Notes: generated by a model from the letters alone, not told the origin. A stretch of DNA of 40,000 bases from Methanolobus vulcani (GCF_006546655.1 NZ_VIAQ01000007.1:4465-44464), one strand, 5' to 3'; positions 14,115 to 32,340 are shown, counted from the first letter of the stretch. Numbers and translations are program-made.

Positions 14115-14169
14115 AATATCATCTCATTAACATAAAGTATAAATAACGTTAACTCTAGTATATGTTTGT

Positions 14170-15291
14170 ATGTTAAGAGCTTACAAGTATAGGATGTATC
14201 CTACAAAAGAGCAAGAAGAGATGTTCTTTCAACATTTCGGAGCATGTAGATACATCTATAATTGGGCTTTAGAACAGAAAATTAAGACATACGAACAGAA
14301 CGGTAAATCAATATCAAGATTTGACCTGAATAAAGGAATATCAATGTTAAAAAGAGATGGAGAACACGAATGGCTCAAAGATGTTAATTCGCAGTCATTA
14401 CAGGGTGCTACTCTTAATCTCGATAATGCTTTTACAAGATTTTTCCGTGAAAAGAAGGGATTCCCGAAATTTAAATCTCGAAAAAATCCAGTACAGGCGT
14501 TCAATGTTCCTCAAAATTATAAGGCTGATATTGAAAATAACAGGATATATCTCCCGAAAATAGATTACATCAAAACTATTTTTCATCGACCTTTAGGAGA
14601 TGGAGACTTAAGAACCGCTACAGTAACACGTACACCCACTGGAAAATATTACATTAGTATTCTTGTAGATGATGGTGCGGAAATTCCGAAAAAACCGAAA
14701 TTTTCCGTAAACGATACTGTGGGAATAGATGTAGGTATCAAGGATTTCGCTATCACTTCAAATGCTGATAAAATCAACAATCCAAGACACCTTAAAAACT
14801 CCATGAAGAGACTTAAAGTTCTATCAAAACGCCTATCTAAAAAACAGAAATGCTCAAAGAACAGAAATAAAGCTCGTCAACAAGTAGCTAAGCTCCACGG
14901 AAAAATAAGCAATCAGAGACACGATTTCCAACATAAAGTTTCAACAAAGCTTGTTAGCGAGAACCAAGCAATAGCAGTAGAAACCCTTAATGTGTCTGGT
15001 ATGCTTAAAAATCACTGTCTAGCTCAACACATAGCTGACGCATCGTGGACTTCCTTCATAACAAAACTCGAATATAAAGCCGAATGGTACGGAAAGACAA
15101 TTCTCCGTATTGGAAGATTCGAGCCGAGTACAAAAATCTGTAATGTCTGTGGCTACTACAACAGTTCCATAACATTAGCAGATAGAGAATGGGAATGCCC
15201 GGATTGTAATACTCATCACGATAGAGACATAAATGCCGCTATCAACATTAAGAAATTTGCTCTCCAAGAGCAGAACTTGATAGGAATATAA
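14170..15291 (+). CDS. tnpB: TnpB (IS200/IS605 OrfB) RNA-guided RuvC-type nuclease
   Basis: 373 aa starting MLRAYKYRMYPTKEQ. The split RuvC has GIDVGIKDFA (D), AIAVETLNV (E) and HDRDINAAINI (D). A zinc ribbon is present: CNVCGYYN...WECPDCNTHH. Confidence 0.9.
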   Translation: MLRAYKYRMYPTKEQEEMFFQHFGACRYIYNWALEQKIKTYEQNGKSISRFDLNKGISMLKRDGEHEWLKDVNSQSLQGATLNLDNAFTRFFREKKGFPKFKSRKNPVQAFNVPQNYKADIENNRIYLPKIDYIKTIFHRPLGDGDLRTATVTRTPTGKYYISILVDDGAEIPKKPKFSVNDTVGIDVGIKDFAITSNADKINNPRHLKNSMKRLKVLSKRLSKKQKCSKNRNKARQQVAKLHGKISNQRHDFQHKVSTKLVSENQAIAVETLNVSGMLKNHCLAQHIADASWTSFITKLEYKAEWYGKTILRIGRFEPSTKICNVCGYYNSSITLADREWECPDCNTHHDRDINAAINIKKFALQEQNLIGI

Positions 15292-15400
15292 TTGTCACCG
15301 TAGGAACTACGGGAAGAGCCTGTGGACTTGCTTCCGTTGGGAAGGGGAATGAAGCAGGAAGCCACGAAGTCTTTAGCTTCGGGGTAGTTCACAAGCTATA
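15292..15400 (+). ncRNA. Probable omega RNA (reRNA) scaffold / right end of the IS
   Basis: A GC-enriched stretch immediately 3' of tnpB carries consecutive stems: ccgtag-gaa-ctacgg, cttcc-gttg-ggaag and cgaag-tctttag-cttcg. This position and character match what is known for TnpB guide RNAs. The 5' boundary probably lies inside the tnpB 3' end. Confidence 0.5.
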
Positions 15401-16316: not shown

Positions 16317-16400
16317 GCGAGGGTTGCCCAGCTGGTCAAAGGCGCCGGACTTAAGATCCGGTATCGAAGGATTTCGAGGGTTCAAATCCCTCCCCTCGCA
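16317..16400 (+). tRNA. tRNA-Leu (anticodon UAA), class II with a long variable arm; no encoded CCA
   Basis: Folded by hand. The acceptor stem is GCGAGGG/CCCTCGC with discriminator A. The anticodon stem is CCGGA/TCCGG with loop CTTAAGA. The variable region is TATCGAAGGATTTC. The T arm is GAGGG-TTCAAAT-CCCTC. Confidence 0.9.
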
Positions 16401-16410
16401 TCGCTTCTAA
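16397..16410. repeat. Left copy of the casposon target-site duplication (cgcatcgcttctaa, 14 bp; 15 bp if the next g is counted)
   Basis: An identical string is found at 29023-29036. The first 4 nt are the last 4 nt of tRNA-Leu. Confidence 0.85.
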
Positions 16411-16440
16411 GGGATATAGGTAACTCAGAAAAATGCAACT
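16411..16440. repeat. Left terminal inverted repeat of the casposon
   Basis: gggatataggtaactcagaaaaatgcaact is the exact reverse complement of 28993-29022. Weaker similarity continues about 10 nt further inward. Confidence 0.9.
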
Positions 16441-16540
16441 TTTAAAAATAAATTGGTGCTAAGTGACTATCTGTGCGAAGTATAAGAATTCTTTAACAAA
16501 AGAAAAATTATATCAGCTTTGAAGAAAGTATAGCTGTTTG

Positions 16541-19500
16541 ATGGCAGATAACGATGAGTTTAATGTTTCTACCGATAACGAGGATAGAGCACAATTTGTA
16601 ACAACTGCATTAAGTTCAGTGCCTTTTGTTGGTGGATTGATATCTGCTTCTGCAAACTACGTAATAAAAAAAAGACAAGACAAAAGATTGTCTGAAGCTT
16701 TAAACAAATTTATTACCAATAACATAGAAAAAAAGGTTGAAGATTCAGATTCTAAATACTTATCTCTTCATAATGACTATTTATCTCTTCAGGATGATTT
16801 TAGATCCTTTGAGGATAATTTTGATGAACTCAAAGCTGGCATTAAATCGATTGAATCACAAAACTTCGAAAGTGAGTATCAATATCTATTGGAATCACTT
16901 CGAGAAAACGTTAAGGAAAATAATCCTACAGAAGCTTTGAAGCGCCTTGGAAATCTAAAAAGTAAAATTTGGGATAAATCACCATCTAACATAAGATATG
17001 CTTTGTTATCTATTGAAGCATCAGCAAACTTAAAGTTAAATAGATATCAAGATGCAGGGAAGCTTTTGATAGAAGCTTTTCAATATAGTAGTATTGAAAA
17101 GGCTATGGTCAATGCTGCATACGGATATTTTTTATTGAATGATTATTTAAATTCAAAAAAATTAGTTGAAGAAGTATTGGAAAATAATCCCACTAATGCT
17201 CGCGCATTCTCGATTCTGATACAAATGTTTACAACTGAAGAAGAATTAGATGCTATTCCCGACTACTTAAAAGAAACACAAGATGTAGCTTATGCTATTG
17301 GAAACTTTTTTTTGAAGATAAACAAATTTGAAGAAGCAATAAAGTGGTTAGAAATAGCTATCGTTAATGAAAAAGAAACTATTATAGAAATGCGGCCTCT
17401 CTTAGCAAGCATTTTACTTGATATGATTTTGTCCGATTCAGAAAAAATTCAAGAATTTCAATTAAATGAAAAAGATAAGAATACACTTAAAAAAGTGATC
17501 GATCTGATTACAACCTCATGGAATTCCATTTCAGATCCAAATCTTCAGAAAATACATGTTGATTGGATAGTTAACAGATGTATTGCCAAACACCTTTTAG
17601 GTAATCAGGACGGTTTTAAAGATGATATAAATGATGCTTTTAAGTTCGATCCATCTGATTCAAGGATTATTTATTTTAAAGCTTTAATGGTACTAGAGCA
17701 CAATGAAATCGAAAAAGCTATTTCTTTACTAAAAGATATTGATTTTGACAAAACCATACCTGAAGTACCATTATTATATTTTGACCTATTAAGAAAACAA
17801 GGCAAATTTGCTGACGCAATTACTGAAATTAATGATTTTTTGGAACAAAATGAAGATTTCCAAAAAATAGATTTCCTCTATAGAATTCTTATTTATACAT
17901 ACCTCGACTCTGATGTTGAATCTGAAAATTGTGTTGAAAAAGCAATAGATCTAGCTGATAGTAGAGTAAAAGCCGATCCAACAAACATTGAAAACATAAT
18001 AGATTTGTCACAATGTCTGGCTAAATCCGGACAGATTGATTCGTCAAAGTCCCATCTAATCAATGCTAAAAATATTATTTCTGATTTTACCCCAACTATT
18101 CATTTAATGGAATTAGCAGATGTTTTTTTCAGATTAAATTTATTTGATGATGCATCTGAAATTTATCAAAAATTTGTTGACTCAACTCAAGTTACAGATT
18201 TAACTCACAAACTTGTAGAATCATATTACCGATGTGGGGATATTGGAAAAGCCCTTGAAATATCTAAATCATTAAGGGAAGAGTTCGGTATTATTGATCA
18301 TATTACAAATATTGAAATTGCAATATATCATGATATAGATGATCTTTCTGAGGCTAAAAAAGTTCTAACTGAATATATTTCCAAATATCCAGATGATATG
18401 GATATGAAATTGAATCTAGCTTATTTAAATCTTAGATGTAATAACTTAGGTGATGTCGAGAACTTTTTAAATACATCATTTGATATTAAGTCGTTATCTA
18501 TCGAAAATGGCATACGTTTAGCTCTTTTATTCAATGAAAGAGGATATTTCAAAGAAGCAATTGATATCCTATATGAAATACGGAGATACAATTTTGAGAA
18601 TGAGAATGTTCATGTCGCTTACATTAAATTAATTCTTTTTAATGAAAAAGAAGAGCGTGAAAATTGGTTATCCCCAGAAAAAGTAGATGCAAATACTGTT
18701 GTAATACTTGAAGAAGATGCAGGAAAACAAGTAACCTACATCTTAGATGATCGAAGTGATGTAGATTTCCAAAAAGGAGAGATTGGACTAGAATCCCCCT
18801 TAGCTAAACTTATTTTCGGAAAAACAAAAGGTGACAAGATTACGCATAAAACTTCTTTATCTCAAGAAATACTTGAAGTAAAGGATATTAAAAGCAAATA
18901 TATCCATGCATTCCAAGAGAGTTTAGATAAATTTAATTACCTATTTCCTGACACACAAGCGTTAACAAAAATCTCCTTCCCAAAAATTGAGGAGGAGGGA
19001 ATCCCTCAAGACTTCCTAAAAACTATTACTGATGTTGTAGTCTTAAGAACGGAAAATAATTCAAAAGCTATAGAATTATATCTTGATAAAAAACTGCCTA
19101 TTGGAACTCTTGCAACCATAATCGGCCAAACAATTTTTGATGTCTGGTTTGAATTTACAAAAAATGAAGATTTAGGAATTTATTGCTCAATTGGAAACAG
19201 TCAAGAAATCAATGAAGCTTTAAACAATCTTGAAAATAGTTCTAAAATTGTAGTCGATCCACTTTCTCTCATCACTGTTTTTACATTAAATATTGGAGAT
19301 TTAATTGTAGATAGTTTCGGCAAGTTAGGTATTGCCCAATCAACAATTGACTTACTTCATGAAACACTTATAGAACAAAAAAAGATTTATTCAAGAGTAC
19401 ATGGTTTTTTAGTAAATGATGATAAGAACCTCATTTTCAAAGAGACTGATTCAAAAGATGTTGAAGAAAAAATAAATGTATATGAACAAATGTTAAATTG

Positions 19501-20164
19501 GATTCCTAAAATTTGTGAAATTATACCATGCAAAGAAGCTCTTTCTCTTAAAAAAGATAAAAAGAAAGAATATGATGATTTACTTGGAAGAGCATTTGTT
19601 GATACTATTCTTATTGCAACCGAAAATGAGAATATTTTATGTACTGAAGATAAAGTGCTTCGTTCAATTGCTAAACAAGAATTTAATGTTGATGGGATCT
19701 GGACTCAACCTTTACTCTTACATTTTCTAAATAATGATATCATTGATCGTAACCAATATAACGAATTGACAATTAAATTGGTAAATTTGCATTATTACCA
19801 CACCACTATCAATTCAGAAGTTTTAGTAGAAGCAGCAAGAAAAACAAATTGGAAAATTGAAGATTCTCTTAAGAATTTTTTGAATATTCTTCGCGGAAAA
19901 AACTGTGATGAAGACTCTGCATTAGCTGTGAGTACGCATTTTCTTTCTGCAATTTGGAATGAAAAAATACCTAGAGAAGATTTGTATGTTCTAACTTTGA
20001 ATTTACTAAGTGTTATTGTTCAAGAAAGATTTGCACCATTTATTATCGATAAAATAAAAAATAGAGTTAATATAAACATCCATTTATTTTCTTCAGAAGA
20101 TCGAGAGGAGATCCTTGAATTAATTAGCTTATGGGAAGCTATTTACTATAAATCCATTTTGTAA
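16541..20164 (+). CDS. Giant cargo protein: N-terminal hydrophobic Gly-rich helix, coiled coil, long TPR array, GreA/B C-terminal-like domain, C-terminal PIN-like nuclease domain
   Basis: ATG at 16541. TPR-like repeats run through most of the length. The GreA/B-C-like block lies at about 18674-18900: VVILEEDAGKQVTYILDDRSDVDFQKGEIGLESPLAKLIFGKTKGDKITHK. The PIN-like block lies at about 19240-19700, with KIVVDPLSL (Asp1), LLHETL (Glu), and AFVDTILIATENENILCTEDKVL (Asp3 plus the T-x-D motif). Confidence 0.7.
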   Translation: MADNDEFNVSTDNEDRAQFVTTALSSVPFVGGLISASANYVIKKRQDKRLSEALNKFITNNIEKKVEDSDSKYLSLHNDYLSLQDDFRSFEDNFDELKAGIKSIESQNFESEYQYLLESLRENVKENNPTEALKRLGNLKSKIWDKSPSNIRYALLSIEASANLKLNRYQDAGKLLIEAFQYSSIEKAMVNAAYGYFLLNDYLNSKKLVEEVLENNPTNARAFSILIQMFTTEEELDAIPDYLKETQDVAYAIGNFFLKINKFEEAIKWLEIAIVNEKETIIEMRPLLASILLDMILSDSEKIQEFQLNEKDKNTLKKVIDLITTSWNSISDPNLQKIHVDWIVNRCIAKHLLGNQDGFKDDINDAFKFDPSDSRIIYFKALMVLEHNEIEKAISLLKDIDFDKTIPEVPLLYFDLLRKQGKFADAITEINDFLEQNEDFQKIDFLYRILIYTYLDSDVESENCVEKAIDLADSRVKADPTNIENIIDLSQCLAKSGQIDSSKSHLINAKNIISDFTPTIHLMELADVFFRLNLFDDASEIYQKFVDSTQVTDLTHKLVESYYRCGDIGKALEISKSLREEFGIIDHITNIEIAIYHDIDDLSEAKKVLTEYISKYPDDMDMKLNLAYLNLRCNNLGDVENFLNTSFDIKSLSIENGIRLALLFNERGYFKEAIDILYEIRRYNFENENVHVAYIKLILFNEKEERENWLSPEKVDANTVVILEEDAGKQVTYILDDRSDVDFQKGEIGLESPLAKLIFGKTKGDKITHKTSLSQEILEVKDIKSKYIHAFQESLDKFNYLFPDTQALTKISFPKIEEEGIPQDFLKTITDVVVLRTENNSKAIELYLDKKLPIGTLATIIGQTIFDVWFEFTKNEDLGIYCSIGNSQEINEALNNLENSSKIVVDPLSLITVFTLNIGDLIVDSFGKLGIAQSTIDLLHETLIEQKKIYSRVHGFLVNDDKNLIFKETDSKDVEEKINVYEQMLNWIPKICEIIPCKEALSLKKDKKKEYDDLLGRAFVDTILIATENENILCTEDKVLRSIAKQEFNVDGIWTQPLLLHFLNNDIIDRNQYNELTIKLVNLHYYHTTINSEVLVEAARKTNWKIEDSLKNFLNILRGKNCDEDSALAVSTHFLSAIWNEKIPREDLYVLTLNLLSVIVQERFAPFIIDKIKNRVNINIHLFSSEDREEILELISLWEAIYYKSIL

Positions 20165-20244
20165 TATTACTCATATATATTTAGAACTTAAATCATTGAA
20201 TTAACTTGCTAAAATAAAAGCGATCTCTTCCTTTAAAAATATTT

Positions 20245-22878
20245 TTAAGTAATTATTGATGCAATTCTTTTAATAGCTGGTGTATTAAGATTGATATCCT
20301 TATTCACCAGAATCCTATCCTTTATCCTCTTGAAAGTACCTCGATCTACTCCCCATTCTTCAACTTGTGATTGAGACAATTCAAGTATCTTTCTCATAAT
20401 ACATCCCTTGTAAATGAATACCTGTGAACGCTTAACATCTAGGGCCTGTTCATCAATGTTGTTGGCTTCCTTGCCAATGTAAACAACTCCATCAGCGTGA
20501 ACATGCTTTCTCTCAAGAACCCCAGTATTTCCATCGAACTTATGCTCAAGGTGTTCAGCATATTGCATTATTGTCTTGCTCAATGGCTTGAAATAACGAG
20601 ATCCTTCTTTGATTTCCCCTGTCTCATAATCAATGAATGGCTCATACACAGTCTTCTGAGAATCTGTAGAAAAAGGCATCAAAGGTTTTACTGCCTTCCC
20701 GTTTTCTTCAAGTGCCTGGAATCCTACAAGATAGAAATTGAAAGGCTTGATCTGGTCATTCCATTCCTTACCTGCATTGAATCCCTTGAACCTTCTCAGA
20801 ACATTTGGAGTTGAAACAGTTAGTCTTGAGATTGCATACAAACCTGAATATTTCTCTTCAATATCAATTCCTGAGATTATTCCATAATTCAATTTGAGAA
20901 GATCTTCCCATATCTCAGCCTGCCAATCATCAACAGTTTTTGGGAATGGATTTGTTAAATGCCCAAGTCCATGTAACTTGAAAGACCTCTCACCTTCCAT
21001 AAACTTGATTGTACCATTCTCATAAGTATAAAGGGCATATCGCTTAGAGGAAATGCCATAGAACCACATGTCTTCTTTTTCAGCCTTCAACAGATCAATA
21101 TCAAGGTTGTATGGGTTAAGAGGCTGGAAATAGTTTATGATCTCCTGGGCATGTTCAGGAGGAACAAAGATGGAATCAGTATCCATATATGCATGAACTG
21201 AACCCAACTCTTTTACTTTGGCTTCTGCCATTGCTAAGAATAACTTTGACCCTGCTGTAATCATGACAGCAAGCAAAGGATGGAAGTAATTGCCTGCTTT
21301 CTCAAACCTGTTCTCAGAGGTATTGAAGTCATCCAAACCATAAACCTGAATATCGCTTTTCTTATCCTCTGGATTAAGTTCAATGAAAATACCATAGCTT
21401 GTGGCATTAACAAGTATTTTGATAGCCTGTGCTCTGCTTTTCTCTTGTTGTTTGATTTTTTGCCTTTCCTGAACAAGTACCTGAACCAGATTGTCCTTTG
21501 AAGGATCAATATCAATTCCAAGTATCTGACTAGTCCTTAATCCCTTCTGAACACCCTTTGGAATATACTTGATAGCTTCAACGATCTTTGGAACTTTGCC
21601 TGTAAGAATAACTGAAGCTATAACATCAGGAAGAGCATACCACAATTCAGAATCAGAACTTAGATAATTAACCCCAACGTTATAGCCTGCTCCAGAGCCT
21701 TTGTAATCCATCCTTACAGGCAATATGTCATTGTCAGGTACAATCTTAACCATTACAACAAAATCTTTCCAGTTATCTTTATTTTGAAGATAATCAAGAT
21801 CCACTTTTGAGAGCATGTCCTTAATCTCATTAGTAACAACCTTCATCTCAAGGGATTCAGCAATCATGAACTTCCAGAGATCCATCATCATTGTAACGGT
21901 TGGATACATGCTTGTAAAATCAAGAACTGTGACCTTTGTTGGTTGTTTTCTAATCTTACATTCACACCTTCCACCATAATAAGAGGTCATGATGTTTCCG
22001 ATCATCTCTGAAGGAAATTCAGGATTTAGATCTAAAAACGATTGAATGCCCAGTTGTTTTAGAGCATGTTTTCCTATTGAAGCAGAACTGAAGATTCTGG
22101 TTGGTGGGATGTTTATTTGATAACGATCCAACTCATCAATGAGCTTTTCATAGACATGATATGTTGTTTCAACATCTTGAATTAGATAATCAATATATCT
22201 CTTGGTTACTTTACCATGTTCAATTCCCTTCATCTTTTTGATGGGAGTATTGAGCTTCTCACCTGCTTTTTCAAGTGAGATATGTTTTGATTGAAGAAGC
22301 ACCTCAGCCAGCTTTTGAGCATCAAGATAATATCCTGAAAAATACTCTTCACCTTTGTTCTCTTTGGTTGTTGTCAACTTGAAAGTATAGGCATCTCCCA
22401 TCTTTTTAACAATGATAGGAGGATTTAATTTGTTCTCTGAAAGAGTAAAAGTAAAACCACCTTTGTTTCTTCCTCTTGATTCTCCAACTCTTTTCGAGAT
22501 CTTACTGGTGTCAAAAGGCAGATTGAAACCAATACAAAGAGCATGCCTCCTAAATATTTCTGTGTAAAAAACATTATCTATAAACTCATCCAAAAGGTAA
22601 AGGGGAATTTCATTCATTCTTGCATAAGCTGAAAAAGCATTTTTCTCATTTTCAGTTAGCATTGAAGGATCATAGAACAATCCTTCATGCTGAATGTAGC
22701 CTTCCTTGTATATCTGAAAGAAGCCAATCTTGAAATTCTGATATTGATCTATTGTTGTTTCTGTATCAAATACCAAAACCCTATCATGCCTTAATGGGTC
22801 TTCTCTTGGTCTAAAGAAAGGATTGCCTGAAGATACCTTGACCTTCAGAGTATATCCCCTTACTGCAATGTTAGACAT
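20245..22878 (-). CDS. polB: Family B DNA polymerase of the protein-primed type, with a C-terminal HTH tail
   Basis: 877 aa. Exo I VLVFDTETT, Exo II GFNLPFD, Exo III YLIQDVETT, Pol A LDFTSMYPT, Pol B KILVNATSYG, Pol C YMDTDSI and KxY SKRYALY. The extra C-terminal ~50 aa read GVDRGTFKRIKDRILVNKDINLNTPAIKRI. Confidence 0.9.
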   Translation of the reverse strand: MSNIAVRGYTLKVKVSSGNPFFRPREDPLRHDRVLVFDTETTIDQYQNFKIGFFQIYKEGYIQHEGLFYDPSMLTENEKNAFSAYARMNEIPLYLLDEFIDNVFYTEIFRRHALCIGFNLPFDTSKISKRVGESRGRNKGGFTFTLSENKLNPPIIVKKMGDAYTFKLTTTKENKGEEYFSGYYLDAQKLAEVLLQSKHISLEKAGEKLNTPIKKMKGIEHGKVTKRYIDYLIQDVETTYHVYEKLIDELDRYQINIPPTRIFSSASIGKHALKQLGIQSFLDLNPEFPSEMIGNIMTSYYGGRCECKIRKQPTKVTVLDFTSMYPTVTMMMDLWKFMIAESLEMKVVTNEIKDMLSKVDLDYLQNKDNWKDFVVMVKIVPDNDILPVRMDYKGSGAGYNVGVNYLSSDSELWYALPDVIASVILTGKVPKIVEAIKYIPKGVQKGLRTSQILGIDIDPSKDNLVQVLVQERQKIKQQEKSRAQAIKILVNATSYGIFIELNPEDKKSDIQVYGLDDFNTSENRFEKAGNYFHPLLAVMITAGSKLFLAMAEAKVKELGSVHAYMDTDSIFVPPEHAQEIINYFQPLNPYNLDIDLLKAEKEDMWFYGISSKRYALYTYENGTIKFMEGERSFKLHGLGHLTNPFPKTVDDWQAEIWEDLLKLNYGIISGIDIEEKYSGLYAISRLTVSTPNVLRRFKGFNAGKEWNDQIKPFNFYLVGFQALEENGKAVKPLMPFSTDSQKTVYEPFIDYETGEIKEGSRYFKPLSKTIMQYAEHLEHKFDGNTGVLERKHVHADGVVYIGKEANNIDEQALDVKRSQVFIYKGCIMRKILELSQSQVEEWGVDRGTFKRIKDRILVNKDINLNTPAIKRIASIIT

Positions 22879-23212
22879 TTGTAGGCATCTCCATTACAAT
22901 ATCATCTAATCGATCTACAAGTTCTCTCAGTAGGGCTAAGAGTGAAATTGCATTAACCACCTTTTTATTTTCTTCAGATGCATCTTTGGATCTTACTTTA
23001 GGACTAAGCCTGTTCTGTTTTGCTGTAACCTTTGAATGACAGTTCATACAGAGTGGCTTGACCACATCTGAATTATTTCTGCCATCTACATGATGCATCT
23101 CAATAACTTTCTCATCGTCTTCTCCACATACAGCACATGCCATAGGTGGCTTCTTTCCTTTCTTATATCTGTTAATACTCTTACTGTAAGCTTCTTTATC
23201 CATAGTATCCAC
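22871..23212 (-). CDS. HNH endonuclease
   Basis: 113 aa. CAVCGEDDEKVIEMHHVDGRNNSDVVKPLCMNCHSKV gives CxxC...HH...N...CxxCH. It overlaps the polB start by 8 nt. Confidence 0.8.
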   Translation of the reverse strand: MDTMDKEAYSKSINRYKKGKKPPMACAVCGEDDEKVIEMHHVDGRNNSDVVKPLCMNCHSKVTAKQNRLSPKVRSKDASEENKKVVNAISLLALLRELVDRLDDIVMEMPTNV

Positions 23213-23215
23213 TCC

Positions 23216-23857
23216 TCAACTTTGATAAATATCCAAATATTCGGGTTCTTCCTGAGCCTCATTTATTTCATAAAGGCGTTCAAGATCTGTTACAAAGAAA
23301 TGTTTTGTACCATTTACATCGGTGATATGTATATCAATAAATCTTTTCAATAAACTTGAATCGCCGGTCTTTAAAGCTCTGTTAATTGCATTGAAATATA
23401 AACCAATTAGAGTTCTATCCTTTGAATTTGTGGTTACGATTGAAATTTGACCTGCATCTTTCTCATAGATGAGCATTTCAACTTCAATTCTATCTGTTGT
23501 GGTTACTTTCCATTTTCCTTTGGATTTATAGAGATATTTTCCAAGATTTCTGATTATGTCTTTCTTGTTAATTCCAGTCTTTTCAACAGCTTTGGAATAT
23601 GGTACCCCTTTCCTCATAAGCCTGAGAATTTGAAGGCTTAGTTTTCTATCCCGCTTTTGTTGTGAACTTAAACCGTTCCAAGAGCTTGTGCTTAAGTCAT
23701 GATCCTTAAGCCTGGTATTTCTCAGTTCGTTCAAGCTTAGGGTTGGAAATCTTTCATGGAATCGGATTATCCTTCTAGCATACTCAGAGCTTCTTGGTTC
23801 AGCCTTGAGCCATTCTCCATAAGTCTTGTATTCCTTTGAGAAGCGCTTGAGTGTCAT
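23216..23857 (-). CDS. Casposon protein of unknown function with a central HTH-like segment
   Basis: 213-aa ORF packed tightly between the RHH gene (ATGA overlap) and the HNH gene (3-nt gap). LRLMRKGVPYSKAVEKTGINKKDIIRNL looks like an HTH. Confidence 0.6.
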   Translation of the reverse strand: MTLKRFSKEYKTYGEWLKAEPRSSEYARRIIRFHERFPTLSLNELRNTRLKDHDLSTSSWNGLSSQQKRDRKLSLQILRLMRKGVPYSKAVEKTGINKKDIIRNLGKYLYKSKGKWKVTTTDRIEVEMLIYEKDAGQISIVTTNSKDRTLIGLYFNAINRALKTGDSSLLKRFIDIHITDVNGTKHFFVTDLERLYEINEAQEEPEYLDIYQS

Positions 23858-23994
23858 TTCTCAGCCTCCATGAGCCTGATGAATGCAATTCTCAACACTT
23901 CAGCCTGAGAACATCCGTATTCTTTCGCTTTCTGTACCAACTTACCCTTTAGATAAGGGGAAAGTGTAACCAATATTCTGGTATTCGACTTCAT
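23854..23994 (-). CDS. Ribbon-helix-helix (CopG/Arc-like) protein, 46 aa, below the ORF-track cutoff
   Basis: Hand translation gives MKSNTRILVTLSPYLKGKLVQKAKEYGCSQAEVLRIAFIRLMEAEK. This has a beta-strand then two helices, with the typical S/T-x-x-E-h-h-R pattern. Its stop overlaps the next ATG (ATGA at 23854-23857). Confidence 0.6.
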   Translation of the reverse strand: MKSNTRILVTLSPYLKGKLVQKAKEYGCSQAEVLRIAFIRLMEAEK

Positions 23995-24088
23995 ACAATA
24001 ATCAACATCATAGGAAAGAATATATACAGATTTGAAGTATAGTTTAATGTATAATTTGATATATTTGCCTAATAAGATTGGTGTATTA
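23995..24088. promoter_or_regulatory. Divergent promoter region between the replication module (minus strand) and the integration module (plus strand) of the casposon
   Basis: A 94-bp AT-rich spacer with several TATA-like strings (atatatacag, tttaatgtataatttgatatattt) lies between divergently oriented first genes. Confidence 0.3.
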
Positions 24089-24337
24089 ATGATTAAGAAT
24101 GAAGTAGATTTTAAGGTAAATACTGAAAATTACTTACACGAAAGTGGGCCTGTTAGGCGGGAGACTTTGATAAATCATCTAATAGAATCCAATGGCTATA
24201 GCAGATCTAGTATTGAAAGAAAGTTAACTAATCTAAAAAAGCAAGGGATTATTGTAACCTTGAAGACAACTGAAGATTTTGCTAGATTTGGTATAAAAGA
24301 AGAAGATAAGAGATCTGCATATAATCACAAGAGATAG
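24089..24337 (+). CDS. Winged-helix DNA-binding protein
   Basis: The in-frame ATG at 24089 lies inside ORF 24032-24337. GPVRRETLINHLIESNGYSRSSIERKLTNLKKQGIIVTLK is a typical wHTH with its wing. Confidence 0.55.
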   Translation: MIKNEVDFKVNTENYLHESGPVRRETLINHLIESNGYSRSSIERKLTNLKKQGIIVTLKTTEDFARFGIKEEDKRSAYNHKR

Positions 24338-24446
24338 TTTTGAAAGAAAAAGGCATATTGACAAGGTTTTTGAATACCTAGAAAATGGAGATGACATAGA
24401 CATAGAAACTGCGTTAACAGAAATCAGAAGATATGAAGAACGCTAT

Positions 24447-24986
24447 GTGATGGATTCAAAACAACTTGACAATTTAGTTACTATACTTTATGATAAATCC
24501 AATGTTAGAATTATAGATAATATTTTGAGTATTCTCTACAAACATATTATTGTAAAAGAAATACTCCCTTCTGATAAAGATAATTTACTGAAAGTTCTGA
24601 AAAAACTCCTATACAAATTCCCAGAAGCTCATCCAAATTATTCAATGATTAGGAGGCATATTCTTCGACTTCTTGGATATTATGAGGATTATGCTGTCGT
24701 TGAGCAATTAATCAAAGATACTGAAAATGGTAGATTACCACAATTCAAAAACGATTATTTGACTAATTTTACAACAAATATTATTGAAGTAGGCAGAATT
24801 GAACTATTCGAACTTGAAGTAAAGGTGAGAAAATCAGGTGATGAAAAGACAGCTGAAAGTTTGAATGAGATCAGGAATTACGCTATAGAAAATTTAAATG
24901 AATCTGGAATAAAAAACCCATTAGAAGCTATTAAGGGTGGAAATCTAAATATTCAATTTAGTGGAATCAAGGGGATCAAAAAATGA
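24447..24986 (+). CDS. Alpha-helical protein of unknown function, translationally coupled to cas1
   Basis: 179-aa ORF. Its stop overlaps the cas1 ATG (ATGA at 24983-24986). The reading frame is also open for 50 codons upstream, with no canonical ATG/GTG/TTG start there (see findings). Confidence 0.55.
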   Translation: MMDSKQLDNLVTILYDKSNVRIIDNILSILYKHIIVKEILPSDKDNLLKVLKKLLYKFPEAHPNYSMIRRHILRLLGYYEDYAVVEQLIKDTENGRLPQFKNDYLTNFTTNIIEVGRIELFELEVKVRKSGDEKTAESLNEIRNYAIENLNESGIKNPLEAIKGGNLNIQFSGIKGIKK

Positions 24987-26185
24987 AATTCCTTCTTCTA
25001 AACGGTCATGGAATCGACATGCGAGTAAATGGGGCTAAACTACACATTAAGGATGGAAGATTCTCAACAACTGATGAACCAGAGGAATATGTATTCTCTC
25101 CAAAGAGGATGGATGTTGATAGCATCATTATCTATGGTAAAAATGGAAATCTTACACTTGATGCCATCCGATGGCTCATTAAACATAATGTACAGATATC
25201 AATTCTCAATTGGGATGGAAAGTTATTGACAACAATGCTCCCTCCTGATAGCACTAATGTAAAAACGAAATTTGCACAATACCATGCATATGAGACTCAA
25301 GAGAATAGAATAAAGATAGCAAGGGCCCTAGTTGAGGCTAAAGTTGATAAATCAACTGTTGTGCTTGAGTACCTAAATCAACGTTATTCTACTGTTGATT
25401 TTGATTTATCAACGGATGTTGATAAGCTAAAGAAGGTCAACTCAATAGTTGAAATAATGGGTGTTGAAGGCGGTATTGCTTACAAATACTGGCATGAGTT
25501 CTCAAAGGTCATTCCTGAGAAGTATGATTTTGAATCTAGAATCGATTCGAGTCGGAGGGCCACAGGGGCAGGGGATATGGTAAATGCTATGCTAAACTAT
25601 GGTTATGCTTTGCTAGAAGCGGAATGTCTTAGGGCTATCAATGCTGTTGGCTTAGATCCTCATGTTGGTTTTTTACATGAAATGAATACTGGAAAGAACA
25701 GCTTGGCTTACGACCTGCAAGAACCATTTAGATTCCTTGTTGATCTAGCGGTTATCAACCTTGTTGAGTCTGAGAGAATGGAAAAGAAGGATTTCATCAG
25801 GACAGAGAATTATTCGCTCAAACTTAGACCTAGTGGAGCTAAGAAGCTAACTAAAGAGCTCAATCTATGGTTCAACAAGAGAGTTAGTTACAAAGGAAAT
25901 ATGACTATGTGGAGTTATGTTCTGTTCCTGAAAACTAGAGAATTGGCTCAGTATTTAGTTGGTAAACGTCAGAATGTTGATTTCATAAAACCACGATATG
26001 AGGCTAAACGACAGGACTCAAACGACATACGACAGAAGATATTGAGTATTTCTTATTCCGATTGGAAAAAGCTAGGTTTCTCTAAAGGTACGTTGCATTA
26101 TATGAAGAAAAATGCTAAGGCAGATAAGCCTTTTACTTTGAATGCTCATGTTAGGGAAAGGTTGGAATTATGGGAAGGATGTTAA
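24983..26185 (+). CDS. cas1: Casposase (Cas1-family integrase with a C-terminal HTH)
   Basis: 400 aa. The Cas1 catalytic-region motifs are GVEGGIAYKYW (Glu), DPHVGFLHE (His) and LAYDLQEPFRFLVD (acidic). The C-terminal extension is ISYSDWKKLGFSKGTLHYMKKNAKADKPFTLNAHVRERL. Confidence 0.9.
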   Translation: MKFLLLNGHGIDMRVNGAKLHIKDGRFSTTDEPEEYVFSPKRMDVDSIIIYGKNGNLTLDAIRWLIKHNVQISILNWDGKLLTTMLPPDSTNVKTKFAQYHAYETQENRIKIARALVEAKVDKSTVVLEYLNQRYSTVDFDLSTDVDKLKKVNSIVEIMGVEGGIAYKYWHEFSKVIPEKYDFESRIDSSRRATGAGDMVNAMLNYGYALLEAECLRAINAVGLDPHVGFLHEMNTGKNSLAYDLQEPFRFLVDLAVINLVESERMEKKDFIRTENYSLKLRPSGAKKLTKELNLWFNKRVSYKGNMTMWSYVLFLKTRELAQYLVGKRQNVDFIKPRYEAKRQDSNDIRQKILSISYSDWKKLGFSKGTLHYMKKNAKADKPFTLNAHVRERLELWEGC

Positions 26186-26203
26186 TATTAAAAAATAATA
26201 CTA

Positions 26204-26701
26204 ATGTATATGAGATTCAAAGAAGAATATTTCTTTTGTAGTCCTAAGTTGCTTAGAAACATCCCAGAAGTAAATGAAATCTTTGAATGCATAAAAGCTG
26301 TTAAATGGCAACCCGAGTTTAAGCTGGAAGACAAAAATCACCAATCTGCTTATAACAAAGCTTTTGAACAGGAATTTTCTAATTATCTTTGGTCTAATAA
26401 ACCATTACTTAATGACAATCCAAAATTGATTGGAGACTTTCAGAAAAACGATGTTTTTGTTGAAATTCAGTTTGGAAATAGTGCTACTATTTATCGTGAT
26501 TACTATAAATTCCATTATGGGCTAGCAAATAAACTACTATCTTTAGCAGTATTGATTGTTCCAACAAACCCAAAAAAGTTTTTTCCAACTCGAAAATCAA
26601 GTGTCAGTAACATGGCAGAATTTGATTTTGCTTACAAATACTTCAATTTACTTCCAATTCCTGTTCCTATATTATTGATAGGATTACTGCCTGAAAATTG
26701 A
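26204..26701 (+). CDS. BglII-like restriction-endonuclease-fold protein with no partner methyltransferase
   Basis: 165 aa. GDFQKNDVFVEIQFGN gives D-x8-E-x-Q, the spacing I remember for the BglII active site (Asp84, Glu93, Gln95). Confidence 0.45.
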   Translation: MYMRFKEEYFFCSPKLLRNIPEVNEIFECIKAVKWQPEFKLEDKNHQSAYNKAFEQEFSNYLWSNKPLLNDNPKLIGDFQKNDVFVEIQFGNSATIYRDYYKFHYGLANKLLSLAVLIVPTNPKKFFPTRKSSVSNMAEFDFAYKYFNLLPIPVPILLIGLLPEN

Positions 26702-26714
26702 TAACATTCTCCAA

Positions 26715-26885
26715 ATGTCACAAAAAGAAGCGGAAGCTCTAGGAGTTTCAAGGAGCAGGTTTCAGGGAATCAAGCAAAGAATAAGGGAAAATAGAGATAT
26801 CAACTTGAATACTCCGGCAGTGAGGAGGTTGGTAGAGTATATTTATCCATTAATTGAAGTGGGGTTTAATTGCGTTAATTTGTAG
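26715..26885 (+). CDS. Stand-alone 56-aa HTH protein, paralogous to the PolB C-terminal tail
   Basis: Hand translation gives MSQKEAEALGVSRSRFQGIKQRIRENRDINLNTPAVRRLVEYIYPLIEVGFNCVNL. Compare the PolB tail SQSQVEEWGVDRGTFKRIKDRILVNKDINLNTPAIKRIASII. Confidence 0.5.
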   Translation: MSQKEAEALGVSRSRFQGIKQRIRENRDINLNTPAVRRLVEYIYPLIEVGFNCVNL

Positions 26886-26921
26886 GTATAAAAAAGGAAA
26901 TAGAAACAATATATACTTTCT

Positions 26922-27404
26922 TTAGGAATCTTTAAATTCTATTTTCGTACTTGGGATAACATCATAGTTATTAGTGTCTGTTGTAATATCGGTTATTTCT
27001 ACGTTATCTGACCCTTCAACAATTAATGTAATCGAAGTTTTCTCTTCTGGATTAAGATTCTTAATGAATACTTCCGCATAATTTCCATTTCCACCTAGTA
27101 TTGTTACATCAGCACTTCCGTATTCTGAAACATTGGTAATGTACCCATTCGTATGTATTTCAAAATAGACATGTTGCGCAATTCCATCGCCTTTATTCTT
27201 CAAATAAACAGTAATGTCATATGTGTCTGGGGATATCTCTTGTGTTGAAGATGTAAATAATAAATCTGGGTGAGGAGCAAAAAAACCTGCAATAGCCTTT
27301 GCTATAAAGATGACAGAAACCCCTATGATAATACCAATTATTAATGTCTTTGTTGTAGATTCACAGTTTTTCTGATTAGACTCCATTGCTATACAGTAGG
27401 ACAC
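26922..27404 (-). CDS. N-terminally membrane-anchored beta-rich protein
   Basis: 160 aa with one TM segment (LIIGIIIGVSVIFIAKAIAGFF). An alternating-pattern beta-rich ectodomain follows (ITVYLKNKGDGIAQHVYFEIH, ITLIVEGS). Confidence 0.5.
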   Translation of the reverse strand: MSYCIAMESNQKNCESTTKTLIIGIIIGVSVIFIAKAIAGFFAPHPDLLFTSSTQEISPDTYDITVYLKNKGDGIAQHVYFEIHTNGYITNVSEYGSADVTILGGNGNYAEVFIKNLNPEEKTSITLIVEGSDNVEITDITTDTNNYDVIPSTKIEFKDS

Positions 27405-27549
27405 TTAATATATATATTTATCTTGTGAAATGATAACATGAGGGAGTCGATTTCGGAAAATTAGCAAATGATAGAGAGAATTGAAAAAAATCCGAATTTG
27501 CATACTTCAGCAGTTAACGAAATAGTTAATCGTGCTAATTAAAAATAGT

Positions 27550-28815
27550 TTAATCATTCAGTGAATGTTTATTTTTGAAATCATATATTGAAACCAAATG
27601 ATTGGGGCTGACAGACTTAGCAATCTTCTCATTGACTGTATTATTTTGCATATCTATTATTGTATCAGAAAGTTTTAAACCTAGACTCGCCAAGAGTCCA
27701 GAACCTAATACACCTTCAGCAACCCCTCCTATCAAGCCTAAACTTAATGAAATTCCAAATTTAATTCCATCAGCTCTCCTAGTTATTTTCCTGGAGTCAT
27801 TCCAAACATTCTCAAGTATCTCTGACATATCTCCACTTTTTTCCTCAATGATATCTGTTTTATTTCTTTTTACTCCTTCATTGAGGGAATTTACTATTTT
27901 GTATAAATCTTGATCATCATATTCTTGAATCACTTTTGTGCATCCGCTTATTGTCTCGGGATATAAAGTTATTTTATTCAAAAGAAATTTTCCAATCTCA
28001 GGAGGAACAGAAGAAGTATTAGGCTCACAATCAAATTGTTTTTCTAAATCATTTACATAACCCATGAATTTTTCTCCATAATGACATATAGGCTTCAATA
28101 AACATTTTTGAGGGTTTGATATTAAAAAACCGTATACTGTAAGGTATAAATGAGCTTTTTCAGGATCTATAATCATTAAAGTTCCAATTTCATCAGCCAG
28201 TTCCTCGTAACCGCTGGCTTTAAGGATACTATAACGACTAGCATAATCTTCTAATTTTGCTAAAGTATATGATATATTACTATTTCCAAATGCACCTGTT
28301 GCGTCCATTACAAACTTATTAAAACCATGCTCAGCTAGGGTTTCAAATTCAATTTTGTTTTTTTTGTCCAATTCGTGACCAGTAACGGATAATGAATCAT
28401 ATTGAACAATTGGTGGTTTGAGTTCAGTAAGTAATGGCTCAAGAAAATCCAGATTTTTATAATAGGTAGGAGGCATCATGAGAACAAATTGTATTCGTCC
28501 TGTTTCTTTTTGAAAATCTATCATTTCATCAATTTTATGGGAATTAAAACCCATTGTAAATTCGTGAGTTTTATCAAAAGCTTCTTTGTTGTCTTTAGGG
28601 ATTAACTTCGCTAATGTTGAACCATAAAATGGAACAACACCCCATATATTAGTATAAGGGTCTGCAATTGGTTCTTTCAACTTAATGAACCTATTTTTAG
28701 GTGGATATCTTTCATTTAGTCCTACTTTTCCCTCATCTAGTCTTGTGATAAAACGAATGGTTTCTTCCTTTTCATGAGCCTCATAATCTTGAAGGAACTC
28801 TTCAAAAGTATTCAT
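27550..28815 (-). CDS. Cargo protein of unknown function with a C-terminal glycine-zipper segment
   Basis: The probable start is the ATG at 28815 (MNTFEEFLQ), inside track ORF 27550-28890. The C-terminus has GIKFGISLSLGLIGGVAEGVLGSGLLASLGLKL (GxxxG repeats). Confidence 0.55.
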   Translation of the reverse strand: MNTFEEFLQDYEAHEKEETIRFITRLDEGKVGLNERYPPKNRFIKLKEPIADPYTNIWGVVPFYGSTLAKLIPKDNKEAFDKTHEFTMGFNSHKIDEMIDFQKETGRIQFVLMMPPTYYKNLDFLEPLLTELKPPIVQYDSLSVTGHELDKKNKIEFETLAEHGFNKFVMDATGAFGNSNISYTLAKLEDYASRYSILKASGYEELADEIGTLMIIDPEKAHLYLTVYGFLISNPQKCLLKPICHYGEKFMGYVNDLEKQFDCEPNTSSVPPEIGKFLLNKITLYPETISGCTKVIQEYDDQDLYKIVNSLNEGVKRNKTDIIEEKSGDMSEILENVWNDSRKITRRADGIKFGISLSLGLIGGVAEGVLGSGLLASLGLKLSDTIIDMQNNTVNEKIAKSVSPNHLVSIYDFKNKHSLND

Positions 28816-28992
28816 ATTAGGTAAATAGAGTTTATTGCATAAAAATCTTGTATGGGTAATAATTATTATTTCGATTTTCAAACGAAACAATTAAAATTTA
28901 AAATATAAGTTCCGTTTTTTTGTGTTAACTATATCCCTAATCTAAAATACTAAGGGTACAATTCGAACCTTTTAAAATACAATTCTTAAAAG

Positions 28993-29022
28993 AGTTGCAT
29001 TTTTCTGAGTTACCTATATCCC
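28993..29022. repeat. Right terminal inverted repeat of the casposon
   Basis: agttgcatttttctgagttacctatatccc is the exact reverse complement of 16411-16440. Confidence 0.9.
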
Positions 29023-29036
29023 CGCATCGCTTCTAA
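29023..29036. repeat. Right copy of the target-site duplication
   Basis: cgcatcgcttctaa is identical to 16397-16410. Confidence 0.85.
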
Positions 29037-29154
29037 GGGATATAGGTAACTCTGATTTTTTGTACGCTAGTCCATTTTGGACTTTAATGAAAATACATAC
29101 GGTATATAATTTGATGAGGTAAATTTTAAATTTTTAAAAGCATTCATTAATGTG

Positions 29155-30165
29155 ATGTTATATGCCAATACTAAAGATGGGGAGAAAATAAGAGCCGCTA
29201 AAAAAAATAAGAGTGAAGAAATAAAGGCATATTGCCCTCTTTGTGATTGGCCAAAATGTGAAAAGCCTTTAGTTTACAAGACTGGTGAAGTTAATATCCA
29301 TCATTTTGCTCACCCAGAAGGCACAGAATGTTCAGATAAGTGGAGCAGGGGTAAAGAATCAGAATGGCATTTGGGTTGGAAAAATTTAGTCAACAAGAAA
29401 TATTGTGAAGTTCCAATTGTAAAAGGCTGGAAAAAACATCGAGCCGATATACAAAATAAAAACGGGTTAGTTATAGAATTACAAAACTCTCCCATATCAG
29501 TTTCTGAAATTCATGAACGTGAAGACTTCTACAACAATATGATTTGGTTAATTAACGGACAGGAAAAAAGAATTATTGTACATTCACCTGATTCTTATTG
29601 TGGTAGCGGTTATTGGCCAGATGACTGTAATATGATAATATGGAAGTACTCAAAAAAGGCAATACTTGAAGCTAAAAAAAGAATATTTATTGATATAGGT
29701 AATGAAGAAATATTATATATAGTCAAAAATGTCAATGGGTCATATTACTCTGAAACTAACGAAGGAAATAGGTTTGGTGGCTATTTAATCAGTAAAACTG
29801 ATTTTGTTGATTATTTTTTAAAGGCTAAAAACAACTCTGTTTTTGATAATATTCAGAAGAGTATGCTAGAAGGCAATGGTTGGTATTTAGAACATCTTAA
29901 ATTATTCGAAAAGTATTTTCATTGGTTACTAAAAACAAAAACTCATTCTAGCTTGCGATATAGGGTAAATGAAGAAGAAATGTTTGACGACTATTTTATT
30001 GTTGATGACTATAAATCACCTCGATTTTTGATTGATTTGACTTATTTCATTGTAGAGCACCCTGAATATAATGACAAACGGTATTTATTATTCAAAACTA
30101 TAAAAACTGGTATAGAGTTGGGCTGGCACGATGCTATGAGAGATGGTACATTAAAGTATGCATAA
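29155..30165 (+). CDS. CoiA-like PD-(D/E)xK nuclease-family protein with an N-terminal zinc ribbon
   Basis: CPLCDWPKCEKPL...HHFAH, then SEWHLGWKNLV...KKHRADIQNKNGLVIELQNSPISVSEIHEREDFYNNMIWLING. This matches the H..K, R-x-D and hE-h-Q-x-S pattern of CoiA-type proteins. Confidence 0.55.
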   Translation: MLYANTKDGEKIRAAKKNKSEEIKAYCPLCDWPKCEKPLVYKTGEVNIHHFAHPEGTECSDKWSRGKESEWHLGWKNLVNKKYCEVPIVKGWKKHRADIQNKNGLVIELQNSPISVSEIHEREDFYNNMIWLINGQEKRIIVHSPDSYCGSGYWPDDCNMIIWKYSKKAILEAKKRIFIDIGNEEILYIVKNVNGSYYSETNEGNRFGGYLISKTDFVDYFLKAKNNSVFDNIQKSMLEGNGWYLEHLKLFEKYFHWLLKTKTHSSLRYRVNEEEMFDDYFIVDDYKSPRFLIDLTYFIVEHPEYNDKRYLLFKTIKTGIELGWHDAMRDGTLKYA

Positions 30166-30170
30166 TCAAT

Positions 30171-30440: not shown

Positions 30441-30474
30441 TTATTTCTCCACAAAAAGCTAAAATTCTTTAGTA

Positions 30475-31341: not shown

Positions 31342-31444
31342 AATATCACTTCTATAAAAAGTTCGTTAAATATAAATCGTTATTACAAATTGATTATATC
31401 TTACTTAAATTTTTATATTTATTCTACGTGTCTATATCAGAAGT

Positions 31445-32338: not shown

Positions 32339-32340
32339 CT

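Follow-up and report, generated by a model that had tools for sequence, protein, structure and literature searches.

A mosaic family-2 casposon beside the tRNA-Leu(UAA) gene of Methanolobus vulcani

We describe a casposon, E1, in a 40,000-nucleotide stretch of Methanolobus vulcani DNA (GCF_006546655.1, NZ_VIAQ01000007.1:4465-44464); this whole stretch is called the window, and positions are counted from its first letter. We are highly confident that positions 16411-29022 are a family-2 casposon which a Cas1 casposase inserted at the 3' end of tRNA-Leu(UAA), which is mosaic in composition and which is younger than the other members of its tandem array. It has been proposed that the CRISPR adaptation machinery descends from casposons and, to our knowledge, nearly all direct evidence that casposons move has come from Methanosarcina mazei. 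The anatomy of E1, its homology to known casposons, the target rule that it follows and the insertion polymorphism at its site can be read directly and carry the argument. Our literature search found no paper pairing casposons with M. vulcani.

Ends, target site and insertion polymorphism

An initial annotation of the window had placed an insertion at the 3' end of tRNA-Leu(UAA). The integration target was called at 16317-16400 (+) by ARAGORN and Rfam (RF00005, 56.4 bits) and the duplicated target overlaps it by 4 nt, which bears this placement out. The cut site lies directly 3' of the T-arm and acceptor 3' strand of the tRNA. The left target-site duplication (TSD), CGCATCGCTTCTAA, occupies 16397-16410, and its first 4 nt coincide with the 3'-terminal 4 nt of the tRNA gene. 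It is an exact repeat of the right TSD at 29023-29036, which is common to E1 and the next element, and the + strand of the window holds exactly 2 copies of CGCATCGCTTCTAA.

Between the duplications lie the 12,612 bp of E1, as first described, bounded by terminal inverted repeats (TIRs). The left TIR (GGGATATAGGTAACTCAGAAAAATGCAACTTTT; 16411-16443, +; position weight matrix (PWM) score 33.7) is complementary at 32 of 33 positions to the right, outer TIR (28990-29022, -), which ends ...GAGTTACCTATATCCC-3'. The inverted repeats reported as perfect over 30 bp are real and run on to 33 nt; the statement that they are identical holds for the first 30 nt and fails at the 1 mismatch in 33. A duplication of 14-15 bp had been proposed, and the exact repeat is 14 bp, not 15. 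We found that the direct repeat at the flanks of E1 is actually 33-36 nt long, because a further TIR copy begins at 29037. Shuffled sequences gave an expectation of 0 chance matches to the 19-nt TIR tip and a maximum of 12.2 in the PWM scan, and the tip was found in 80+ instances across related loci. The G+C content of E1 is 32.9%; E1 had been called more AT-rich than its flanks, which is true of the left flank (39.2%), the right flank being close at 34.3%.

In Methanosarcinales, casposons follow a target rule, namely a 14-bp TSD that starts with CGCA at the 3' end of tRNA-Leu or at a mimic of that end (PMC4779613, PMC6977970). The TSD of E1 obeys the CGCA rule and, at 14 bp with a 4-nt tRNA overlap, has the M. 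mazei geometry. E1 shares its terminal 16 nt (GAGTTACCTATATCCC) exactly with the M. mazei casposon end that served as substrate in vitro, where integration needs the TSD and 30 bp of the tRNA (PMC6977970). Among related loci we found 54 non-identical TIR starts with a forward 14-mer beginning CGCA, upstream of which stood a tRNA-like end, GTTCRAAT...CCCC(T), in 29 and another TIR end in 19. As a comparison of sequences, this junction pattern agrees with the in vitro need for the TSD and 30 bp of tRNA.

Metagenome contigs L092-L095 (L numbers denote related loci) were reached via homologues of the MBL-fold gene that flanks the tRNA. A metagenome scan with an exact 32-mer (tRNA end plus 14-mer) gave no match; empty sites were found via a degenerate tRNA pattern and later by protein-guided look-ups. 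We found that in L092-L094 tRNA-Leu is followed by one CGCATCGCTTCTAA, no TIR, and then unrelated sequence toward a UDG gene. L092 and L093 are about 95-97% identical to the left flank of the window, L092 over ~10 kb, and the homology of the empty-site contigs to the window ends exactly at 16410. Since these genomes are ~95% identical and lack E1, the insertion is recent, as the initial annotation had proposed, and the empty site that it predicted (tRNA-Leu, then cgcatcgcttctaa once) is the arrangement seen in L092-L094. In L095, whose identity is at this level too, a different casposon occupies the tRNA-Leu site.

The type strain M. vulcani PL 12/M (L096, FNCA01000008.1, ~84% identity) has a solo TIR at tRNA-Leu and no second 14-mer. 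In this region of PL 12/M (1575-9831) the solo TIR is followed by UDG, by a type I restriction-modification system that is complete, and by C-terminal pieces of Cas1. PL 12/M holds a quite different island at the same hotspot, and the locus is the same variable island. The orthologous tRNA-Leu adjoins the same MBL-fold gene in 40+ related loci; a TIR stands at +14 in about half of 41 loci with the MBL-tRNA-Leu site, and the empty ones are found mainly in more distant relatives. L052 has an isochorismatase gene within 250 bp of tRNA-Leu; in the window such a gene lies beyond the array. The isochorismatase ORF of the window (open reading frame; 34628-35167) lacks ~30 N-terminal residues of the L052 homologue, and a 60-aa ORF in another frame overlaps its start (34485-35167), which may be a frameshift or an alternative start.

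Casposase and core genes

The casposase gene (24983-26185, +) encodes a Cas1 homologue with a C-terminal helix-turn-helix (HTH) domain (Pfam PF01867, Cas_Cas1, E 3.5e-70). Aligned without gaps to the crystallised M. mazei casposase (6OPM; E 1.8e-193) it is identical at 279/399 residues (70%), with 83% identity in the N-terminal domain, 62% in the catalytic domain and 80% in the HTH (residues 336-399). Catalytic E162, H232 and E247 are kept, as are the CGCA-contacting R191 and R192; these residues were identified by Hickman et al. 2020 (PMC6977970). The catalytic motifs and C-terminal HTH first read in this ORF are thus upheld by Pfam and by the 6OPM alignment. The best CRISPR Cas1 structure, 4N06, matches at E 1.3e-38, and full-length (~400 aa) homologues with E <1e-50 come almost all from methanogenic archaea. 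Search scores and identity place E1 Cas1 in the casposase clade, apart from CRISPR-associated Cas1. The protein is 100% identical to TQD27917.1/WP_154808646.1, 'CRISPR-associated endonuclease Cas1' [Methanolobus vulcani], encoded on a 55.6-kb contig, and this public label is a misleading annotation.

We found no tandem CRISPR array and no CRISPR-repeat RNA family in the 40-kb window, and no cas2 among the larger ORFs scanned (ORFs <60 aa were not searched systematically). The initial annotation had excluded cas2, CRISPR repeats and any other cas gene; the first two exclusions stand for the scanned ORFs and the array search, and the third falls with the cas1 pieces at 31445-32326 and 32344-32448. 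No integrase, capsid or terminal-protein signature was found in the scanned ORFs of E1 (Pfam, PADLOC). Genuine CRISPR arrays (37-nt repeats, period 72-75) occur in distant organisms near the orthologous tRNA-Leu site or casposon fragments (L082:6865-8775, L077:4786-5039, L030:3043-5868), the L082 array ending ~100 bp upstream of tRNA-Leu; by eye their repeats are unrelated to the TIR sequence.

The integrase chemistry of the E1 casposase can be proposed from the residues and DNA ends that it shares with the M. mazei enzyme. It would bind both TIR tips (...GAGTTACCTATATCCC-3'OH) and would recognise the tRNA-Leu(UAA) 3' end, the T-arm and acceptor via its C-terminal HTH and the CGCA via R191/R192. 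The two 3'-OH ends would be joined at staggered positions 14 bp apart, and gap repair would duplicate CGCATCGCTTCTAA and leave the tRNA intact. The polymerase, HNH nuclease and three small conserved proteins described below presumably serve excision and replication. E1 would have entered the tRNA-proximal copy of a target already bearing older casposons, and a captured right arm would have travelled with it at the last use of the outer TIRs.

The gene at 20245-22878 (-) encodes a family B DNA polymerase (PolB) of the family-2 casposon type (Pfam PF03175, DNA_pol_B_2, E 7.4e-13). All of the Exo I-III and Pol A-C motifs attributed to it earlier are readable in the translation, motif C being YMDTDS. 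Identity is 60-83% to 11 of 16 aligned casposon PolBs and 40-44% to the remaining 5. The C-terminal tail is homologous to the C-terminal HTH of Cas1 (hhalign probability 97.1%, E 5.3e-11), for which a profile comparison was needed, pairwise BLASTP of the tail and the HTH giving no match. An HTH common to the C-termini of Cas1 and PolB is a stated hallmark of family 2 (PMC4046053).

The label 'protein-primed-type' that this polymerase had been given is not supported. The single point in its favour is the assignment to DNA_pol_B_2, the sole Pfam match and a family described as 'organellar and viral'. Single-sequence phmmer of E1 PolB against solved structures gave nothing at E <=1. A 17-sequence PolB family profile matches archaeal PolBs (5MDN at 1.2e-7, 4FM2, others) in motif B only, and no phi29-type or other protein-primed polymerase was among its PDB matches. 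Krupovic et al. grouped family-2 casposon PolBs with RNA-primed PolB3-like enzymes (PMC4046053), and in the classification of Kazlauskas et al. the family-2 casposon PolB of A. boonei falls in a separate, divergent cluster, 'PolB_CDTDS', with links to the main group as well as to the protein-primed one (PMC7544198). This suggests that E1 PolB is one of the divergent polymerases typical of family-2 casposons.

Upstream of polB lies a conserved core gene for an HNH endonuclease (22871-23212, -). The initial call of an HNH nuclease is sustained by weak models (ZorE HNH 2.8e-6; Pfam HNH 0.014) together with synteny in 14+ loci, and the translation shows CxxC...HH...CxxCH. Beside it lie genes for a conserved 213-aa family-2 core protein with a putative HTH (23216-23857, -; 42-75% identical and in the same position in 14 loci; HTH match faint), a conserved 101-aa protein with a putative winged HTH (24032-24337, +; syntenic in 14 loci; sub-threshold wHTH/MarR matches) and a conserved 179-aa protein directly upstream of cas1 (24447-24986, +; syntenic in 14+ loci; no Pfam family). 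Ribbon-helix-helix and winged HTH regulators had been named earlier; we found sub-threshold HTH matches only. For the published family-2 trait of two HTH proteins, one with a HEAT-repeat C-terminus, the HTH matches of the small ORFs of E1 are these sub-threshold ones, and Pfam scans detected no HEAT repeat in the 213-, 101- and 179-aa proteins.

The block PolB-HNH-orf213-orf101-orf179-Cas1 is syntenic in about 15-20 Methanosarcinales loci. All of the core ORFs of E1 (6/6) are full length relative to their homologues, and the claim that they are uninterrupted stands. A scan of species-representative genomes gave 51 related loci, nearly all in Methanosarcinales, with Cas1 identity <=82%. The polB module is nearest to Methanococcoides elements and cas1 to Methanolobus elements. 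Cas1 and synteny together point to family 2. E1 is an apparently complete family-2 casposon, a fresh example of a well-described family and no new kind of element. The initial likening to M. mazei casposons that target a tRNA-Leu 3' end was sound, as seen from 70% Cas1 identity, the same ends, the TSD rule and gene order (PMC4779613).

Mosaic right arm, cargo and downstream array

A polB 3' fragment with the C-terminal HTH tail of another casposon lineage lies at 26703-26885 (+; 70-82% to the PolB C-termini of L001, L014, L016 and L095). It starts right after the stop codon of a BglII-like gene, where the in-frame polB-tail homology ends, and encodes the last ~44 residues of PolB; 26697-26831 has 88% DNA identity to the polB tail of L095. 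This suggests that 26703-26885 marks a deletion and fusion junction. Beyond it are orf160 (26922-27404, -) and orf446 (27550-28890, -), cargo of the captured arm with no significant Pfam/PADLOC family; a homologue of orf446 (62%) adjoins a Cas1 fragment in L051. An inner, nested TIR of a different class follows (GGGATATAGTTAACACAAAAAAACGGAACT...; 28902-28937, -; PWM 30.6), with 3/19 and 6/33 mismatches to the E1 TIR, and this class also heads the casposon at tRNA-Leu of the sister genome L095. The layout of the right arm is the mirror image of the usual 'TIR-cargo-polB 3' end' arm. We take 26703-28937 to be, most probably, a TIR-proximal arm that E1 captured from another casposon. The pairing of the outer TIR with the left one and the perfect TSDs show that the composite moved as a single whole.

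The inner and outer TIRs are separated by a 49-nt spacer (28938-28986, -) in which an anchored alignment found a tRNA-3'-end-like stretch, GGTTCGAATTGTACCCTT, and a 14-mer. The tRNA-like stretch has 18/35 anchored identity to the tRNA-Leu 3' end (p ~5e-4), and the spacer is colinear with equivalent units in L016, L011, L018 and L062. A search for TAATCTAAAATACT as the second TSD copy of the inner TIR gave chance-level matches only. The spacer was also considered as a mere decayed right TIR, which is disfavoured: TIR ends do not contain GTTCGAAT, and the stretch can be aligned with the T-loop and acceptor of the tRNA.

We found that this arrangement recurs as an 85-89-bp unit, consisting of a TIR (36 nt), ~20 nt, a tRNA-3'-like GTTCGAAT...CCCT, a 14-mer and the next TIR in direct orientation. 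Its sites are window 28902-29022, L016:1066-1151, L011:3499-3584, L018:12883-12969 and L062:110-284. The unit precedes casposons in Methanococcoides (L016, L011, L018), with a 63-bp variant in L013, and two units stand in tandem beside tRNA-Leu in a Methanolobus-like metagenome contig (L062/L069). GTTCRAAT at +54-58 from the TIR tip is expected 0.006 times per TIR and was seen only where another TIR follows. A TRF search of related loci for arrays of the unit gave only unrelated coding repeats and genuine CRISPR arrays elsewhere.

The geometry of the unit (36-nt repeat, ~50-nt interval) loosely resembles a repeat-spacer array. It is conceivable, if rather improbable, that the casposase makes these units as repeat-plus-spacer-like arrays growing from the tRNA 'leader', either by repeated insertion of a minimal TIR unit or by nested insertion into the target copy at the end of an element. 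The alternative is that they arose by random decay or as an inherited accident. If the casposase does make them, such arrays would supply a concrete intermediate on the proposed path that leads from casposon solo-TIRs to CRISPR arrays, and a casposon could bring with it a landing site for others. Of all the leads here, this pattern of solo-TIR units is the one that could be worth more.

The cargo of E1 looks like conflict or defence genes. A gene at 16541-20164 (+) encodes a 1,207-aa protein with TPR, GreA/B C-terminal and PIN regions (PF20698, the Pfam 'TPR-GreAB-C-PIN system', 2.4e-21; PF01272, 1.2e-8; TPR families), and an identical protein has been deposited as 'GreA/GreB family elongation factor'. 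The TPR-GreAB-C-PIN protein is rare (15 database matches), and a literature search under this name found no papers. Elsewhere its gene lies downstream of unannotated genes. Because its homologues, from a Methanosarcina metagenome-assembled genome and metagenomes, sit outside casposons with no TIRs nearby, it is a captured gene. A weak TIR-like match within its coding sequence (18914-18949, -; PWM 20.0) is probably chance or an old relic. Downstream of cas1 lies a gene for a BglII-like type II restriction endonuclease (26204-26701, +; PF09195, 6.2e-10; PADLOC REase_II, 0.0028), and the scanned ORFs of E1 include no methyltransferase domain that could partner it.

A second TIR begins right after the right TSD, at the head of ~5 kb of casposon remains that include two further cas1 fragments. 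The window had been read as holding a lone insertion, and this has to be revised: E1 is the most recent arrival in a tandem array (~16411-33940) and lies nearest the tRNA, and the distal members of the array are decayed. Such an arrangement has been described for some Methanosarcina strains (Krupovic et al. 2016, PMC4779613). The TIR of the second, older casposon, remnant 2a (29037-29072, +; class ...TGATTTTTTGTACGCTAG / ...TTTTTTGTACGC; 18/19 to the TIR tip; PWM 30.8), belongs to a class that sits directly at tRNA-Leu in L083, L084 and L072. Remnant 2a carries a gene for a CoiA-N-like protein (29152-30165, +; PF25164, 4.3e-7), a homologue of which (74%) trails the same TIR class at tRNA-Leu in L084, and the cargo ORFs orf89 (30171-30440, -) and orf288 (30475-31341, -). 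They are followed by an N-terminally truncated casposase gene (31445-32326, -; residues 109-398; tblastn 74%, E 2e-151), which is without the first 108 codons, covers Pfam Cas1 profile positions 136-282 only and has 88-89% DNA identity to cas1 of L003, L005, L006 and L009.

Abutting the truncated gene head-to-head is the third cas1 fragment, the C-terminal 35 aa, in remnant 2b (32344-32448, +; tblastn 71%, E 1e-12). The right-arm cargo of remnant 2b is a TRAM-domain gene (32642-32854, +; PF01938, 2.4e-18), which has a 90% homologue flanked by Cas1 fragments in L050; after the gene comes a degenerate right TIR (33006-33041, -; PWM 25.3). Remnant 2b matches the cas1-TRAM-TIR right arms of L050 and L032. 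A TSD-like 14-mer, CGCACCTGAGCGTC (33042-33055), then stands between two TIRs; it is unlike the native CGCATCGCTTCTAA and similar to the 14-mers found at tRNA-Leu in M. bombayensis (L002) and L084. The next TIR (33056-33091, +; PWM 27.7; 8/33 mismatches) heads a further decayed unit (33056-33908). At a decayed junction (33876-33939) we found a TIR-like sequence (33876-33908, -), a 14-mer (33909-33922) and the TIR-like GGGTATATCTACTCAGA (33923-33939); the 14-mer is reversed and reads CGCATCGCAAACCA on the minus strand. The window holds CGCATCGC 3 times against 0.11 expected. The non-matching and reversed 14-mers suggest import, inversion or recombination between elements in part of the history of the array. 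A chromosomal rearrangement at the array was considered and rejected, as PL 12/M has the orf156 region ~16 kb downstream of the same tRNA-Leu; since that region is retained there, the locus is a variable island and not a breakpoint.

Upstream of the tRNA, a TnpB-only element of IS200/IS605 type occupies 13676-15392 (TnpB ORF 14170-15291; OrfB_IS605, Cas12f1-like TNB and HTH domains). Window positions 13675 and 15393 are adjacent in the sister genomes L092 and L093, relative to which the element is an exact insertion of 1,717 bp; a TnpB of L095 is 76% identical and sits elsewhere. The window also holds a tandem pair of paralogous methyl-accepting chemotaxis genes with Cache sensor domains (8417-10471 and 10760-12823), which have ~80% DNA identity to each other's orthologues and are conserved in all sister genomes; they are ordinary host genes.

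Alternative readings and comparison with known systems

Several points weigh against the account of E1 given here. The intact ORFs, near-identical TIRs and identical TSDs are the whole case for its being, plausibly, still mobile. E1 holds internal wreckage (the polB tail fragment and nested TIR), and therefore deletions have happened inside it. The distal 14-mers (33042-33055, 33909-33922) differ from the native CGCATCGCTTCTAA. The polymerase is too divergent for a single-sequence match to any solved structure. The right junction cannot be matched to an empty site, the distal flank of the empty-site genomes (UDG and beyond) lying outside the window.

E1 could be a casposon by descent that is no longer autonomous, a fixed island whose genes are kept for other reasons such as defence cargo. 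We consider this unlikely, though it would account for the polB fragment, nested TIR and fusion junction inside E1 and for the decayed relatives around it, and one report describes casposon movement in vivo as rare even in M. mazei (PMC10359463). Against it stand outer TIRs that differ at 1/33, identical TSDs, 6/6 full-length core ORFs and intact catalytic residues, and the 95% identical genomes without E1 make the insertion recent.

Less probable still is that a larger tRNA-Leu island, E1 included, was acquired horizontally and brought in by homologous recombination, with no casposase integration here. The crossovers would then fall in the tRNA/MBL region and in resident casposon sequence. 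Both E1-flanking copies are the native 14-mer that is single in the sister empty sites, as integration in situ predicts, whereas an imported island would more likely bring its donor's 14-mer. Import would fit the non-matching CGCACCTGAGCGTC at 33042, which is like the tRNA-Leu flanks of other species, and the reversed copy at 33909-33922; it would also fit the mosaic nature of E1, with polB nearest Methanococcoides and cas1 nearest Methanolobus elements, and the head-to-head truncated cas1 and cas1 fragment. That cas1 is a CRISPR adaptation gene, orphaned or degenerate, and the polymerase comes from an unrelated integrated virus or plasmid, as the public name 'CRISPR-associated endonuclease Cas1' and the Pfam 'organellar and viral' family might suggest, is for practical purposes refuted by the Cas1 scores (1.8e-193 against the casposase, 1.3e-38 against the best CRISPR Cas1), the casposase-specific C-terminal HTH, the placing of cas1 and polB in one TIR/TSD-bounded unit that is syntenic across many loci, the empty sites, the lack of cas2, an array or a non-cas1 cas gene among what was found in 40 kb, and the lack of an integrase, capsid or terminal-protein signature.

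As a recently inserted casposon, E1 leaves the current picture of casposon biology unchanged. It adds a second natural case of recent casposon mobility in another genus, with near-identical genomes in which one tRNA-Leu site is empty, differently occupied or marked by a solo TIR. Existing assays could be applied to it, given how near its casposase, ends and target are to those of the crystallised system. The locus also shows module exchange between casposons, in which arms are captured by nesting or deletion and conflict-type cargo is gained.

The closest known systems are the M. mazei tRNA-Leu family-2 casposons (for example MetMaz1FA1A3-C2; casposase structure 6OPM), as covered by Krupovic 2016 (PMC4779613), Hickman 2020 (PMC6977970) and Gehlert 2023 (PMC10359463). 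They have the same target, a 14-bp TSD of CGCA and an A/T-rich tail, and they share with E1 the 16-nt TIR end, the casposase residues, the C-terminal HTH and the core gene set. E1 differs in its genus, in a Cas1 catalytic domain that is 62% identical, in its cargo and in a mosaic right arm with a nested TIR and a polB fragment; it also sits in a tandem array, which is not seen in M. mazei strains (PMC4779613). Tandem casposons are known from Methanosarcina sp. 2.H.T.1A.3/.6/.8/.15 and 2.H.A.1B.4, and solo-TIRs from M. mazei (PMC4779613). Solo TIRs adjoin CGCA there, as here, and one listed strain, Methanosarcina sp. 2.H.T.1A.6 (L008), has the same TIR-14-mer-TIR junctions as the window. In contrast to those tandems, the older members here are arms and fragments fused head-to-head, and the 14-mers of the array are not all alike, one being reversed. 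The solo-TIR unit here lies inside the end of E1, whereas the M. mazei solo-TIRs lie beside the element. Within the genus, MetPsy-C1 (M. psychrophilus R15) and MetTin-C1 (M. tindarius), both in the 2014 casposon catalogue (PMC4046053), are of the same family, with Cas1 identities of 82% and 80%; compared by Cas1, they are different elements from E1.

Family-1 casposons and Polinton/Maverick elements are, like E1, self-synthesizing transposons with TIRs and their own family B polymerase. Theirs is a bona fide protein-primed PolB, whereas that of E1 is of the family-2 type, and family-1 casposons target aEF-2 in Thaumarchaeota where E1 targets tRNA-Leu. The CRISPR Cas1-Cas2 integrase has in common with the casposon the Cas1 fold, the active site and a staggered, target-duplicating integration; the CRISPR repeat corresponds to the TSD, and the preference for a site next to the 'leader' parallels the tRNA end in E1. 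Unlike a CRISPR adaptation module, E1 is without Cas2 or an array, and the DNA that is integrated is the 12.6-kb element itself, by a casposase that has a C-terminal HTH and is a homotetramer in M. mazei (PMC6977970).

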